Assembly: GCA_049424145.1 (NCBI GenBank)
Contig: JBMSSC010000031.1
Coordinates: 1-24,474, forward strand
Reading direction: 5' to 3'
DNA: 24,474 nucleotides
Origin: Bdellovibrionia bacterium
Lineage (GTDB): Bacteria; Bdellovibrionota; UBA1018
Both the position numbers and the translations under genes were made by a program. This document shows positions 1 through 5,411 of this stretch, piece by piece. Under the pieces are notes generated by a model. That model ran no database searches. It worked only from the letters and a program-made list of their open reading frames with translations, and had not been told where the DNA came from. Every line of letters begins with the position of its first letter. The first letter of the stretch is position 1.

Positions 1-473
1 GGGTCGTGGTGGTGGGGGGAGGCGGGAAATCGGGTGTTCTTTGCCTCTATGAGGCGAAGAAAAAACCGGGAGTCAAAACCATTGCGCTGGATTACCAACC
101 AGAGGCCATGGCGCGCTTAGGGAAGCTCTCCTTTGTGGATCATGCCATTCAGGTGGATGCCCGAAACGCTGTGGAGGTGATGGAAAAAGTCCGTCGTCTC
201 ACCGAGGGCAAAATGGCAGACGTGGTGATCAACGTGGCGAACGTGCCAGAGACGGAGATGAGCTGCGTTTTGGCGTGTAAGGCTGGGGGATTAGTTTACT
301 TCTTTAGTATGGCTACGAGCTTCACCAGGGCCGCTTTAGGGGCTGAGGGTGTAGGCGCCGATGTTCAGTTGCAAATTGGAAATGGATACTGTTTGGGGCA
401 TGCTGAAGTCGCTCTGAATTGCATTCGTGAGAGTGCGGAGTTAAAAGAGTTGTTCTATCAGACCTACGTTTGA
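1..473 (+). CDS. kdd: L-erythro-3,5-diaminohexanoate dehydrogenase, C-terminal part (5' truncated by window edge)
   Basis: VVGGGGKSG nucleotide-binding loop and the Kdd-typical YFFSMATSFTRAALGAEGVGADV..IGNGY segment; directly upstream of kamDE; frame is open to the left edge. Confidence 0.9.
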   Translation, partial: VVVVGGGGKSGVLCLYEAKKKPGVKTIALDYQPEAMARLGKLSFVDHAIQVDARNAVEVMEKVRRLTEGKMADVVINVANVPETEMSCVLACKAGGLVYFFSMATSFTRAALGAEGVGADVQLQIGNGYCLGHAEVALNCIRESAELKELFYQTYV

Positions 474-513: not shown

Positions 514-2082
514 ATGGCCCATCTTTCTTTAGATCGCAGTCAAATTGAGGAATGCCGCACATTGGCCGCTTCCATTGCCAAGCCCGTGGGACAACTCATT
601 GAGAGTCACACCACGGTGGCCATTGAACGAGCCGTCTTAAGATTACTGGGCGTTCAAGGGGCTTTGCAAAGAGCTCAAAACCAGTGGTTTCCAGAGGTCA
701 ATCAGATCATTCAGGATCTTCATCAGCAAAAGGTCTTAGGCAAAGGGGTTCTCCATTGGTTTGTCAACGGACTATTGCAGACCAATCTTTCGGTTCAGGC
801 TCTGGCCACGGCCTGTGCCTCCGGAAAGGTTCAACTCACCTCCTTACCTCAGTCCCCTGAGAAACAAATTCGCGCGGAAGCTCAAGCCCTCTGCCAAAAG
901 GCTCGAGAAAACCTCGTCGCTCAGCGTGAGCTTCGAGATTCTTTGCGGAAAAATCTAAACGACACGTTTGATGCCACGGGAAAAAGTGGGCCACTGATCT
1001 ATGTGATTGTGGCAACGGGGAATATTTTTGAGGATGTCATTCAAGCTCAGGCCGCAGCTCAGGCCGGAGCTCAGGCCATTGCCGTCATCCGGAGCACGGC
1101 TCAATCGCTTTTGGATTTTGTCCCGCACGGGGCAACAACAGAGGGTTTTGGAGGAACCTACGCTACGCAGGAGAACTTCAGAATCATGCGCAAGGCGTTG
1201 GATGAGGAGGGTCAGAAATTAGGTCGTTACATTCGGCTGACGAACTATTGCTCAGGGCTTTGTATGCCTGAAATTGCTGCTTTAGGGGCAATGGAAAGGC
1301 TGGATTTTCTGCTCAATGACGCGATGTACGGAATTTTATTTCGAGACATCAACATGCAAAGAACGCTCATTGATCAGCACTTTTCTCGCAGGATCATTGC
1401 GCTCTCTCGCATTGTGATTCATACGGGAGAAGATAATTACTTAACCACTGCCGATGCGGTAGAGAATGGTCATCAAGTTTTAGCCTCTCAATTCATCAAC
1501 GAGCGGTTTGCATGGGAGGCTCAGATGACCTCAGATCTGATGGGGCTGGGGCATGCGCAGGAGATGGATCCTGAGCACCCCAATGTATTTTTGCTTGAAA
1601 TTGCACGCGCTCAGATGACTCGAGATATTTTCCCTGAGTCACCGATTAAGTTCATGCCTCCCACGCGGCATAAGTGTGGTGATATCTTCTACAGTCACTT
1701 GATGGATGCGATGTTTAACTTGGTGGGGGTGCTCACGGGGCAGTCGATTCAGCTTCTAGGAATGGCAACTGAAGCCATGCACACCCCACTGCTTCAAGAT
1801 CGGTGGATGAGCATTAAGAATGCCAAGTACATCTTTAACGGAGCTAAGGATCTAGGAAAAGACATTGAGTTTAAGGCGGATGGAGTGATTGAGGAGTGGG
1901 CTGCCCGCGTACTGGATGAGACCGTCGCTCACTTAAGAGGGATTGAACAAAAGGGTTTGTTTCAAGCCATTGAGCAAAAAGCTTTTGCAGAGGTCAGTCG
2001 AACTCCACGAGGCGGTAAGGGATACGATGGGGTGATCTTACGCGAGCCCGAGTACCTGAATCCTTTTTTTGAGATCCTCTAA
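514..2082 (+). CDS. kamD: Lysine 5,6-aminomutase alpha subunit (TIM barrel)
   Basis: 522 aa; motifs HTTVAIER, YVIVATGNIFED, AVIRSTAQSLLD, GATTEGFGGTYATQENFR, NYCSGLCMPEIA, ILFRDINMQRT, KFMPPT. Confidence 0.95.
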   Translation: MAHLSLDRSQIEECRTLAASIAKPVGQLIESHTTVAIERAVLRLLGVQGALQRAQNQWFPEVNQIIQDLHQQKVLGKGVLHWFVNGLLQTNLSVQALATACASGKVQLTSLPQSPEKQIRAEAQALCQKARENLVAQRELRDSLRKNLNDTFDATGKSGPLIYVIVATGNIFEDVIQAQAAAQAGAQAIAVIRSTAQSLLDFVPHGATTEGFGGTYATQENFRIMRKALDEEGQKLGRYIRLTNYCSGLCMPEIAALGAMERLDFLLNDAMYGILFRDINMQRTLIDQHFSRRIIALSRIVIHTGEDNYLTTADAVENGHQVLASQFINERFAWEAQMTSDLMGLGHAQEMDPEHPNVFLLEIARAQMTRDIFPESPIKFMPPTRHKCGDIFYSHLMDAMFNLVGVLTGQSIQLLGMATEAMHTPLLQDRWMSIKNAKYIFNGAKDLGKDIEFKADGVIEEWAARVLDETVAHLRGIEQKGLFQAIEQKAFAEVSRTPRGGKGYDGVILREPEYLNPFFEIL

Positions 2083-2126
2083 TTGGGTTTGGTATTTTGT
2101 GAAACTGGATCAGATCGAGGTGTTGG

Positions 2127-2975
2127 ATGTCAAAAGTCGCTGAGGTGAACTTAAAAAAACTGAGGCCTTACGGCGATATCATGGATGATGGGACCGTGCA
2201 GTTGGCGTTTACTCTACCCGTGGAAGTCTCCCCTGAGGCCCGTGAGGCGGCCGTACAGTTGACTCAAAAGATGGGCTTTGAGCAAATTAAAGTGGCCACC
2301 ATGGAGAAGGCGTCTCATGGGTTTTCGTTCTTTGTGATCTATGCTCGGCTCAAGCACACGGTGGACTTCACTCAGATTCGGGTTTTAAAGGTGGAGGCTC
2401 CCAAACGCTCGCGTGAGGAAATTGATGAGATCATCCGCACGCAGATTGGAAGAAAGCTGGTCATCCTAGGGGCCTGCACCGGGTATGATGCTCATACGGT
2501 GGGAATCGACGCCATCATGAACATGAAGGGGTTTTCAGGGGATTATGGTTTGGAGCGCTATCAGTGGCTGGATGCTCGAAACTTGGGTGCTCAAGTGCAG
2601 AACGAGGACTTACTCAAGCTTGCTGTTCAAGAGAATGCCGATGCCATCTTAGTTTCCAAAGTGGTGAGTCAGCATAATATTCATATCCGAGATTTAAAAG
2701 AGCTGATTCAACGAGCGGAGAAGATGGGATTGAAAGATAAGTTGATTTTTGTAGCAGGAGGACCACGAGTAACGCATCCCATGGCCTTGGAGTGCGGTTT
2801 TGATGCGGGCTTTAGTGTGGGAACAAAACCCTCCGATGTGGCCAGTTACGTGGTTGAGGAGTTTATTAGGCGTAGGGAGGCCAAAAGTGAGAAATCGAAA
2901 ACCAGTTCGGGATCTCAGGCCAAAGCGCCACTGCTTGCAGAGCAGTCCAAAGAAAAAGGTCAGGGGAAAAAATAA
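2127..2975 (+). CDS. kamE: Lysine 5,6-aminomutase beta subunit (AdoCbl/PLP-binding)
   Basis: PYGD..DDG.VQL.FTLP N-terminus, DxHxxG cobalamin motif (YDAHTVG), PLP lysine in AIMNMKG, GFDAGF; GAGGTG SD upstream; extra Lys/Ser-rich C-terminal tail. Confidence 0.95.
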   Translation: MSKVAEVNLKKLRPYGDIMDDGTVQLAFTLPVEVSPEAREAAVQLTQKMGFEQIKVATMEKASHGFSFFVIYARLKHTVDFTQIRVLKVEAPKRSREEIDEIIRTQIGRKLVILGACTGYDAHTVGIDAIMNMKGFSGDYGLERYQWLDARNLGAQVQNEDLLKLAVQENADAILVSKVVSQHNIHIRDLKELIQRAEKMGLKDKLIFVAGGPRVTHPMALECGFDAGFSVGTKPSDVASYVVEEFIRRREAKSEKSKTSSGSQAKAPLLAEQSKEKGQGKK

Positions 2976-3946
2976 TGGAAAACAAGAGCCGAGCGTTAAC
3001 AGGGCGATCTGAGGAGCGAGTCCGCGTGGAGGCCTGTCTTCGGGCCCAGAGGAATGTGCTGATTGAGGGTCCGGTGGGCGTGGGAAAAACTCACTTGGCT
3101 TTAACCGTAGCCAAAGCGATGAAGCGCCCGGTGTTTCGAGTGGATGGGGATAGTCGATACTCGGAGCAAAAGCTCGTAGGTTGGTTTGATCCTCCCACGG
3201 TGATTAAAAAGGGGTTTACGGCTGAGGCGTTTATGCCGGGTCCGTTGGTCGAAGCGATGCAAAAAGGGGGCGTCCTGTTTATTAATGAGCTCAATCGCTT
3301 ACCTGAGGGAGTGCAAAATGTTCTTCTTCCGGCCATTGATGAGCGGATGATTTTGGTGCCCCGGTTGGGAGAAATTCAAGCCGTGGGCGGCTTTCTCGTG
3401 ATTGCCACGCAGAACCCGAAGGAGTTTGTGGCCACCTCCCATCTCAGTGAAGCGATCTTGGATCGCTTTGAGCTCGTGATGTTAGATTATCAGACGGAGC
3501 AGGAAGAAGTGAAAATCGTGGAGGATCGACTCTGTTTGCCTCGCTCACTCAAGCCAGAGCAAAGCCTTCTGGCCTTGGCTTCCGTCAGGCTCGTGCGATT
3601 GACTCGCTCTCATCCCCAAGTGAAACGAGGGGCTTCACTTCGTGCTGCGCTCAGTTTAGCTGAAATTGCTGGGGTCTTAATTGCAGAGGCCTTGGCTCAA
3701 GAGTCCGTCCCTCCTCAGGAGCAGTGGAAGCATTGGAAGGCAGCCTTTTTCACGGCGGCTCAAATGGCTCTGCCCACTCGCATTGAGATTGAGCGAGACA
3801 TGGACGCGGGGGATTCGTATCAGGCGCAGATGGAGAGCCTGATTGAGGCTTGGGTGAATGAAACTCTCGAGGGTTTAGGTCCATCCGGGGAGTCTTCGCT
3901 TGAGGAGGAAGAGGAGTCTCAGTCAGGCGTAAAAAAAAAGACTTAA
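2975..3946 (+). CDS. MoxR-like AAA+ ATPase
   Basis: Walker A GPVGVGKT, Walker B-like LFINELNR, ATQNP sensor, LSEAILDRF arginine finger; TAATG stop/start overlap with kamE; ends in an acidic linker (EEEEESQSG). Confidence 0.9.
   Translation: MENKSRALTGRSEERVRVEACLRAQRNVLIEGPVGVGKTHLALTVAKAMKRPVFRVDGDSRYSEQKLVGWFDPPTVIKKGFTAEAFMPGPLVEAMQKGGVLFINELNRLPEGVQNVLLPAIDERMILVPRLGEIQAVGGFLVIATQNPKEFVATSHLSEAILDRFELVMLDYQTEQEEVKIVEDRLCLPRSLKPEQSLLALASVRLVRLTRSHPQVKRGASLRAALSLAEIAGVLIAEALAQESVPPQEQWKHWKAAFFTAAQMALPTRIEIERDMDAGDSYQAQMESLIEAWVNETLEGLGPSGESSLEEEEESQSGVKKKT
3931..3940 (+). other. Candidate -1 frameshift / slippage site (A9G; A_AAA_AAG in the AAA+ reading frame)
   Basis: GTA AAA AAA AAG ACT TAA closes the AAA+ frame; the -1 frame has no stop from 3904 to 5001 and is the vWA frame. 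Confidence 0.65.
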
Positions 3947-4011
3947 TTCAAAACGAAGCTCGGCGTCAATCGGAGCGTAGGGAGCTTTATCAAAGTCTGT
4001 TTCAATCGCCT

Positions 4012-5004
4012 TTGGGTCAGAGTCAGTCGTGGTTTTCTCCTCCGGAGCTTCTTCAGTCCCTTTTTGCCCCGAGCGCTCCTCCAGACTCCTTCAATTCCGA
4101 GGCGAGTTTATCCGATGTTTTAGCCCAGGTTTCTCAGGCCAGTCCTTGGGACGTTGCGATTCGCTACCATGAGATTAAATCTCAGCTCCAATCCAAGCGC
4201 CTCACCCAAACGCTCCGCTCGTTATCGGCACAGGCCATCTTAGAGCGAGCGCGAAAGCTGCTGGGTTCACTCGTTCATCCAGAGGTGCAGCACTTTGCCC
4301 CCTTAGATGAGATTCCAGTCGAAGCAACGCAGGTGGACTTGGATCTAGAGGAGACCTTGGAGCACGCTCCGTTTGCCTTCAGCGAGCAGCGGGGTTTACC
4401 ACCGGGAGTCCAGTCCACGGTGACCGCCCAGGATCTATGGATGAGTTATCGATTGGTGCGTCGACAATCCGTGGTGCTCAGTGTGGATACCAGTCTTTCC
4501 ATGACTGGAGAGAAACTGGCGCTAACAGCCGTGGCTCTTGCCGTGGTTTTGCTGCAGTTTCCCGAGGATTTCATTGGCATTGTGGCTTTTGAAAATGAAG
4601 CCTGGGTTTTAAAAAAGCCCGAGGAGAAAATCTCCATTGCGCAGTTGGTGGAACGATTCCTCGATGTTCCTGCTCAGGGCTACACGCATTTGGAGGAGGG
4701 GTTAGTGGCCGCCTTAAAGCAGGTCAGGGCGATTGGCTCACGCTTAGGAGGAAGGCCCTGCTCGACCCTCCTTTTAACCGATGGCAAGTACACGGCGGGA
4801 CGGGATCCGGCCTACTTGGGTTGTCAGTTTCCCCATCTCGTGGTGATGAAGATGGGGAAGGAGCAGGCTGGCTTAGGTTTGTGTCGTCAGCTTGCGCAAG
4901 AGGGCTCCGGTGTGCTTCGCGAGGTTCGTGAATTGGAGTCGCTCCCTGCGCTCATGTATGGCGTGGTGAAGGATCTATTGCGAGGCAGGTCTGTCCTATG
5001 TTAG
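4012..5004 (+). CDS. vWA domain protein (MoxR partner); frame is open from 3904, so it may be translated as a fusion with the AAA+ gene
   Basis: Intact MIDAS motif: DTSLS, GYTH, LTDG; DLEETL segment typical of pre-vWA linkers; the TTG at 4012 has no SD at normal spacing. Confidence 0.85.
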   Translation: MGQSQSWFSPPELLQSLFAPSAPPDSFNSEASLSDVLAQVSQASPWDVAIRYHEIKSQLQSKRLTQTLRSLSAQAILERARKLLGSLVHPEVQHFAPLDEIPVEATQVDLDLEETLEHAPFAFSEQRGLPPGVQSTVTAQDLWMSYRLVRRQSVVLSVDTSLSMTGEKLALTAVALAVVLLQFPEDFIGIVAFENEAWVLKKPEEKISIAQLVERFLDVPAQGYTHLEEGLVAALKQVRAIGSRLGGRPCSTLLLTDGKYTAGRDPAYLGCQFPHLVVMKMGKEQAGLGLCRQLAQEGSGVLREVRELESLPALMYGVVKDLLRGRSVLC

Positions 5005-5087: not shown

Positions 5088-5411
5088 ATGAAAAAAAGAG
5101 AATCCAAGTTTTCAAAGGGTGAAAGAAAGCCTAAAAACCAGGAGTTCAAATCCAGCTCATGGGCTCTGAATTCAGGACTAAAAGAAGAGCTGGCAGAGGA
5201 TCGGAGGAAACCAAGTATGTTAGATGATTACAAACTCAAGGGCCGGACGCGTCGGATTGAAATTGATTTAGAGGAAGAGGTTGCCGAAAACCTTTTGAAG
5301 ATGGAAAAGCATAAAAAACTCTCCAAGTCGGAGATTGCTAATACGGCGCTCAAGCGCTTTATTGTCTCGCACAAAGATTTTCTGCCCGCTTCTGATCAAA
5401 AATCATCCTAA
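5088..5411 (+). CDS. Small protein with a predicted C-terminal ribbon-helix-helix (CopG/Arc-like) DNA-binding fold
   Basis: RRIEIDL (alternating strand), EEEVAENLLKME (helix), LSKSEIANTALKRFI (helix with SxSE.. N-cap) matches the RHH pattern; basic N-terminal extension. Confidence 0.65.
   Translation: MKKRESKFSKGERKPKNQEFKSSSWALNSGLKEELAEDRRKPSMLDDYKLKGRTRRIEIDLEEEVAENLLKMEKHKKLSKSEIANTALKRFIVSHKDFLPASDQKSS

Follow-up and report, generated by a model that had tools for sequence, protein, structure and literature searches.

A stretch of 24,474 nucleotides from a Bdellovibrionia bacterium (contig JBMSSC010000031.1 of assembly GCA_049424145.1), referred to here as the window, carries on its plus strand an open reading frame (ORF) for a MoxR-type AAA+ ATPase (2975-3946) and, in the -1 frame relative to it, an ORF for a vWA-domain protein (to 5004). 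We propose that these ORFs form one recoded gene with a programmed -1 site at a run of nine A residues (A9). On the comparative evidence described below, we assign this reading a probability of about 0.88. Standard reading would produce a 323-residue NorQ/CbbQ-like ATPase ending one codon past the run, while a -1 shift inside the run would produce a 676-residue ATPase-linker-vWA protein in which ...GVKKK is continued by DLIQNE... (322 codons, 2975-3940, plus 354 codons, 3940-5001). The identical 676-residue protein would result whether the mRNA gained one A or the ribosome slipped. Short and long products with the same ATPase module could co-assemble in one hexameric ring, and how many rings bear a tethered vWA arm would then depend on how often slippage occurs.

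The ATPase frame ends GGC GTA AAA AAA AAG ACT TAA. A preliminary description, made from the letters of this DNA, had identified here the A9 run, the slippery heptamer A_AAA_AAG and the stop codon that closes the AAA+ frame, and inspection of the sequence confirms the coordinates of all three (Table 1). It had also described a -1 frame that stays open into the vWA ORF and a first start, TTG 4012, that lacks a Shine-Dalgarno (SD) sequence. Translation and a scan for SD matches agree: the frame is continuously open from 3904 (..RRKKKDLIQNEARRQSERRELYQSLFQSPLGQSQ..) past TTG 4012, its first candidate start codon, up to the stop at 5002-5004, and no SD-like match lies upstream of the TTG. The peptides predicted from the -1 frame 5' of TTG 4012 include DLIQNEAR and ELYQSLFQSPLGQSQ, and the same segment holds a Y-x-S-[IL]-F motif (YQSLF, 3988-4002) that is found again in relatives.

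We compared this junction with those of homologous loci. For a close set, 41 related genomes were searched; the ATPase was present in 34, from which 27 loci with both halves were fetched, and three further loci were interrupted by contig ends. A scan of species representatives added 80 loci, mostly from metagenome-assembled genomes (MAGs) of Bacteriovoracaceae, Oligoflexia and Bdellovibrionia, together with one Poribacteria MAG and several Thermoplasmata MAGs. Removing 21 exact duplicates, 7 loci that were cut by contig ends or had no vWA match, 5 fused archaeal loci and one locus broken by Ns (L092) from these 110 loci left 76 junctions. A wider sample of the phylum contained the ATPase gene in 94 of 301 genomes; among the matches listed, its open frame spans about 270-390 residues, save for one fused second copy of 660 residues. 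Twenty places from this sample form a distant set, of which 19 are split, with identity of the vWA half to that of the window falling to 26-36%, and the twentieth is the fused second copy. With these 19 and one metagenomic locus, the comparison comprises 96 junctions, no two of them identical, which come from Bdellovibrionota genomes and, in a few cases, from other records.

The vWA frame is -1 relative to the ATPase frame in all 96 split junctions, which come from several families of the phylum, and 92 of them have a run of A9-A11. In the close set, the -1 offset and an A9-A11 run inside the overlap of the 0 and -1 frames are found at 27 of 27 loci. Run lengths in the first 76 junctions are A9 (41), A10 (29), A11 (2), A7 (3) and A6 (1), and the 20 junctions added later are all A9-A11 and all -1. 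The metagenomic locus (L131), a 66%-identical relative encountered when the DNA of a fused homologue (P0001, below) was sought, is likewise split, with the -1 offset and A10. The four loci with A6 or A7 (L043, L093, L095 and L097) have the highest GC content, 0.64-0.67. They keep the -1 offset and still hold an in-phase A_AAA_AAG or A_AAA_AAA (as CGA AAA AAG or CCA AAA AAA). The in-phase heptamer furthest 3' reads A_AAA_AAG in 57 of the first 76 junctions, A_AAA_AAA in 12, A_AAA_AAC in 6 and AAAGGGC in one; in this last case (L017) an A_AAA_AAG sits one codon upstream. The run of A residues, the -1 relation and the open stretch shared by both frames, which the preliminary description had put forward for a check in homologues, are thus conserved.

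The in-phase end of the run is ..A_AAA_AAN in 64 of 76 junctions, the base that follows is G in 65, and the 0-frame stop begins 4 nucleotides past the run in 45. In A10 and A11 loci the additional A residues are supplied by the preceding codon (GAA or CAA), so that the phase of the 3' end and the relation of the frames are unchanged. Outside the run, AAA makes up 974 of the 2,071 lysine codons (47%), and only two KKK triplets occur elsewhere in these ORFs, neither as an unbroken run. ORF lengths and linkers vary freely, and the frame relation has therefore outlasted many insertions and deletions. The overlap between the 0 and -1 frames shrinks to 13-16 nucleotides at some loci (for example L014, L025 and L028); at these loci a -1-frame stop codon extends into the first bases of the run, so that a shift must fall within the run itself. 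Collectively, the comparisons strongly support selection on the A-run as nucleotides, with a -1 frame that would be translated across it, and the programmed -1 recoding first suggested for the window alone gains the same comparative support.

In-frame fusions of the two halves, which the preliminary description had suggested looking for, occur in other lineages. All 120 longer homologues recovered by protein search align to both halves, and at five Thermoplasmata loci the halves are fused in one frame. The metagenomic protein P0001 is fused, shares 57% identity with the first half and 55% with the second, and reads ...EDEKKKDLTPS... at its junction; another fused protein, P0002, has a similar linker without a lysine run. 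In the AlphaFold model of P0001 (mean predicted local distance difference test score 83), KKK opens the only long disordered segment (residues 322-352), which sits between the ATPase and a helical-plus-vWA part. One genome of the phylum sample contains both arrangements: its second copy (L128, G018:C93) is an in-frame fusion of 660 residues alongside a split copy, and in this fused paralogue the ATPase is 46% identical, the junction has no A-run and no kamDE genes lie nearby.

One alternative is that the locus consists of two ordinary genes, in which the vWA gene starts independently at TTG 4012 and the A-run is a lysine-rich tail or an A-rich leader for ribosome loading. The TTG does exist; A/T runs of at least nine, many of them near gene starts, are about tenfold over-represented in the source genome (192 against approximately 18 expected from base composition); and the closest solved relatives are as a rule encoded by separate genes, norQ and norD or cbbQ and cbbO. 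However, independent genes would not hold one offset at every junction, and start codons are poorly placed for such a gene. Over the 76 loci, the median distance from the run to the first ATG, GTG or TTG of the -1 frame is 97 nucleotides; a start within 30 nucleotides is present at only 7 of the 76 loci, and is ATG at just one of these; and 42 of the 76 have no -1-frame start at all before the PPE motif. For starts up to that motif, an SD match of at least 5 nucleotides is found at 2 of 76 loci, and not at TTG 4012. At every locus the -1 frame is uninterrupted from the A-run on, and two motifs, [FY]-x-S-[IL]-F and F-L-P-P-E, recur in its peptides before most candidate starts are reached. We therefore regard two independent genes as very unlikely.

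The remaining alternatives place the frame change in the DNA or in the data. In DNA-level phase variation, the run would gain or lose an A during replication and so switch the locus between split and fused states, with neither RNA nor ribosome slippage. Homopolymers are hot spots of replication slippage, as noted in the sections consulted of Antonov et al. (PMC3711429), and the in-frame fusion of P0001 falls exactly at ...KKKDL.... In addition, two contigs from one public metagenome run (X2), covering 3660-3939 and 3931-4391 with a depth near 3x, break off exactly at the run of A residues, which may mean heterogeneity of run length in the reads or only low coverage. Against this, the consensus sequence shows the -1 relation at each of the 96 junctions and never an in-frame or +1 one, a uniformity not expected of a switching locus; P0001 is known as a protein only, from which a run length is not readable, and a break at 3x depth proves nothing. 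Phase variation is accordingly given little credence. Least credible of the alternatives is that the gene is truly a plain A10 fusion and that the split state comes from an error of assembly or sequencing or from pseudogene decay. Some sequencing chemistries are error-prone at homopolymers, but the same state recurs in 96 separately assembled genomes and contigs, the A10 and A11 alleles take their extra A residues from the preceding codon with the frame relation intact, and both ORFs are undamaged and conserved. The count of nine A residues, the natural first check on the preliminary description, was borne out by contigs from two studies that give A9 for the source species: a contig of run X1, which may be the source sample, spans 3400-4382 with no differences, and a 118-nucleotide contig of run X3, from another study, spans 3869-3986 with no differences and no gaps.

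Several points weigh against the recoded-gene reading. The 96 junctions come from kin genomes and are not 96 independent events, and the 20 places taken from the phylum sample were hand-picked for distant families and second copies and are not a random draw. The A9 check rests on assembled contigs of public sequencing runs, and the count of starts ahead of the PPE motif uses a loose regular expression. A9 runs are common in the source genome. Synthesis of both products, and their ratio, we infer from sequence comparison. Finally, at one locus (L046, 4870-5020), an A9 run and an open -1 frame with the conserved motifs are present, and similarity to the vWA half resumes in the +1 frame about 100 nucleotides further on; this is either a second frame break or an assembly error.

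An A-run between two long out-of-frame ORFs is, by comparison, a rare arrangement: only 6 of the 911 runs of at least eight A residues in the source genome separate two long ORFs in different frames, and the run at 3931-3939 is the sole one of these six with at least nine A residues, the other five being A8. Examples of inter-ORF A8 runs elsewhere in the genome are C3:7535-7542 on the minus strand and C4:34409-34416 and C66:12143-12150 on the plus strand; at least the last of these (GTG AAA AAA AAG) resembles an ordinary MKKK gene start.

If the two ORFs are one recoded gene, how slippage occurs can be weighed from the surroundings of the run. The preliminary description had proposed an SD-like GAGGAG upstream and a stem downstream as stimulators. 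GAGGAG is present, and the stem pairs in the minimum-free-energy fold; a stimulatory role is supported for neither. SD-like matches of at least 5 nucleotides precede 9 of the 76 junctions (0.12), against 0.11 of background windows of the same ORFs, and are thus not enriched. The hairpin of the window folds at -11.6 kcal/mol, which 48 of 200 dinucleotide shuffles equal (z -0.64), and over the 76 junctions the 50-nucleotide downstream windows have a mean z of -0.15, compared with +0.15 for control windows 300 nucleotides further (Mann-Whitney p 0.08). GAGGAG and the downstream stem are thus probably not stimulators. Cis-acting stimulators are not obligatory for slippage on poly-A.

Slippage of RNA polymerase, which would leave one extra A in the mRNA, is slightly favoured by the sequence patterns as the main route for A9-A11 alleles. 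It is favoured by the presence of at least nine A residues, more than the heptamer needs, at 92 of 96 junctions together with the lack of a conserved SD or stem, and also by the behaviour of chelatase cassettes, in which efficiency climbs with run length (shifting of 10, 40 and 63% for A7, A9 and A11 in the data consulted from PMC3711429). Tandem -1 slippage of the ribosome on A_AAA_AAG is a sizeable, if somewhat less probable, candidate for the main route; it is favoured by the conserved phase, the 3' G and the A6 and A7 alleles that hold on to the heptamer. A small share of the likelihood is left for both processes contributing in roughly equal parts.

The family of the ATPase was assigned from profiles, solved structures and a model. 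Pfam AAA_5 matches the ATPase ORF with 84.6 bits (cut-off 22), and its translation contains a Walker A motif, GPVGVGKT. Among solved structures, the closest by sequence are midasin (itself AAA_5; E 6.8e-37), NorQ (E 5.6e-14) and CbbQ (E 1.7e-6). The P0001 model, which represents the 57%-identical relative and not the window protein itself, superposes with template-modelling (TM) scores of 0.82-0.83 on NorQ chains, 0.78-0.83 on NorQ and CbbQ taken together and 0.45 on BchI (1g8p). No equivalog was reached for GvpN, NorQ or CbbQ, the best NCBIfam score being 85.7 bits for GvpN (against 266.8). Pfam VWA_2 matches residues 190-294 of the 3904-5001 translation with 33.3 bits (cut-off 27), and the vWA half matches nothing in the PDB by sequence. 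Sequence and model together indicate that the ATPase is of the AAA_5/MoxR class and NorQ/CbbQ-like, with a vWA partner predicted to carry a metal ion-dependent adhesion site (MIDAS) of the form DxSxS. At the Walker B position (3275-3295, residues 101-107, LFINELN) the protein has hhhhNE in place of hhhhDE; N104 and E105 do not vary among 26 split homologues, nor does this N-E pair among 42 fused ones.

Membership in the ChlI/ChlD chelatases was considered and rejected. All scores are far under their NCBIfam cut-offs: 32.9 against 499.55 for BchD-ChlD (TIGR02031), 25.4 against 466.95 for BchI-ChlI (TIGR02030), 23.4 against 558.55 for CobS, and 36.1 for the AAA+ half and 30.3 for the vWA half against 779.45 for TIGR02442. 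The CobN/ChlH family (PF02514) has no match in the source genome, which is 95% complete, while control genomes match in 5 of 14 cases, and the fold is nearer to NorQ than to BchI. These family scores, the missing CobN match and the NorQ-like fold all agree with the initial view of the locus as a non-chelatase MoxR/vWA pair.

The recoding logic itself is known from frameshifted chlD ('magnesium chelatase') genes (fs-chlD), and would operate here in a different AAA+/vWA family. Frameshifted chlD genes were reportedly also the subject of a study by Antonov in 2020 (Mol Biol Evol). In the portions consulted of Antonov et al. 2013 (PMC3711429), Atkins et al. 2016 (PMC5009743) and Kuznetsov et al. 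2022 (PMC9227772), fs-chlD genes are described as giving short and long products. The resemblances to these accounts are close: two ORFs of roughly 1 kb each stand one after the other, an AAA+ ORF first and then one in the -1 frame (here vWA), the shift is placed at A_AAA_AAR or a poly-A of 7-11, one-frame fused homologues exist in other taxa, and short AAA+ and long AAA+-vWA subunits are proposed to arise from one gene. The differences lie in the AAA+ family, in the absence of a CobN/ChlH match, in a kamDE context in place of tetrapyrrole synthesis, and in the downstream structures, which the text consulted of PMC9227772 states for chlD sites and which are not enriched here. The open-access literature, as far as it was consulted, yielded no description of a MoxR-vWA poly-A site, and the 146 clusters of PMC3711429 may include the family.

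Two further systems offer partial parallels. The gene dnaX, in what was consulted of PMC3711429, uses the same heptamer in Escherichia coli (A_AAA_AAG, ribosomal) or an A9 run in Thermus thermophilus (transcriptional slippage), and its tau and gamma products, made in a set ratio, have their N-terminal ATPase module in common, as is proposed here for the short and long subunits. Unlike in dnaX, where the shifted product is the shorter one, the shift here would lengthen the protein, and nothing conserved here corresponds to the SD and hairpin that stimulate shifting in E. coli dnaX. The NorQ/NorD and CbbQ/CbbO pairs, each described in the sources consulted as a MoxR AAA+ hexamer with a vWA adaptor (PDB 9qh4-9qhg, 6l1q and 5c3c; PMC13036017), include the closest single-module solved relatives of the ATPase, and their partners, too, have a vWA/MIDAS domain; these pairs are made from two separate genes. 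The mixed ring proposed here would parallel the NorQ/NorD complex, in which there is one vWA protein per hexamer.

Table 1. Coordinates of the proposed recoded gene, its putative slip site and neighbouring features, numbered from the first letter of the window.
Feature	Position	Strand	Basis
Zinc-type dehydrogenase gene, 3' end	3-473	+	ORF
kamD, lysine 5,6-aminomutase subunit	514-2082	+	Pfam Lys-AminoMut_A, 757.7 bits
kamE, lysine 5,6-aminomutase subunit	2127-2975	+	Pfam OAM_dimer, 100.4 bits; B12-binding, 46.9 bits
0-frame ORF, MoxR-type AAA+ ATPase, 323 residues (predicted short product)	2975-3946	+	Pfam AAA_5
-1-frame ORF, stop to stop, vWA-containing	3904-5004	+	Sequence; stop codon 5002-5004
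SD-like GAGGAG	3911-3916	+	Sequence; unsupported as stimulator
A9 run, proposed slip site	3931-3939	+	Sequence; contigs of two runs concur
In-phase slippery heptamer A_AAA_AAG	3934-3940	+	Sequence; inside A9
-1-frame linker DLIQNEARRQSERRELYQSLFQSP, without ATG, GTG or TTG	3940-4011	+	Translation
0-frame stop TAA, one sense codon past the heptamer	3944-3946	+	Sequence
Predicted hairpin, GAAGCTC (3955-3961) with GAGCTTT (3982-3988)	3955-3988	+	Fold; unsupported as stimulator
vWA domain, MIDAS motif DTSLS	4471-4785	+	Pfam VWA_2; motif from translation

The ATPase gene begins in direct continuation of kamE, its ATG sharing bases with the kamE stop codon (TAATG). The order kdd-kamD-kamE followed directly by the recoded ATPase-vWA gene is seen in the window (514-5004) and at loci L003-L127. 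Upstream of the ATPase, kamE matches at 50 of the 66 unique loci with at least 900 nucleotides of upstream flank, and at 15 of the 19 distant junctions; loci that lack kamDE retain the proposed recoding site as well. Just 3' of the vWA gene lies a Lys/Glu-rich ORF of 107 residues (5088-5411) without a Pfam match, and in L131 a peptide like its C-terminal part (..LANTAIKRFISSHKDFMP..) is likewise encoded 3' of the vWA ORF.

The usual linkage to kamDE makes the ATPase-vWA gene a plausible candidate helper of the B12 enzyme lysine 5,6-aminomutase. This B12 radical enzyme is known for suicide inactivation. KamB had no match in the source genome, and the control likewise matched nowhere; KamC gave only sub-threshold, MutS-sized matches there. 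We tentatively raise the possibility, which we hold to be doubtful, that the slip-set mixed AAA+ ring is an undescribed, ATP-driven reactivase or cofactor-exchange chaperone for the adenosylcobalamin-dependent lysine 5,6-aminomutase, replacing KamB/KamC in Bdellovibrionota. If this were true, MoxR-vWA chaperones in general, far outside the chelatases, would use poly-A recoding to set their stoichiometry.

The predicted site is present in every carrier of the gene examined across the sampled Bdellovibrionota. Annotation presents such a locus as two genes, one for an ATPase and the other for a 'hypothetical vWA protein' that has no start, which the one-gene reading would correct for a whole phylum. 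It would also extend recoding into short and long subunits, which is rare in cellular genes, from the class I chelatases to the MoxR chaperone family, and the recoded gene may offer a simple handle on the adaptor stoichiometry of AAA+ rings.

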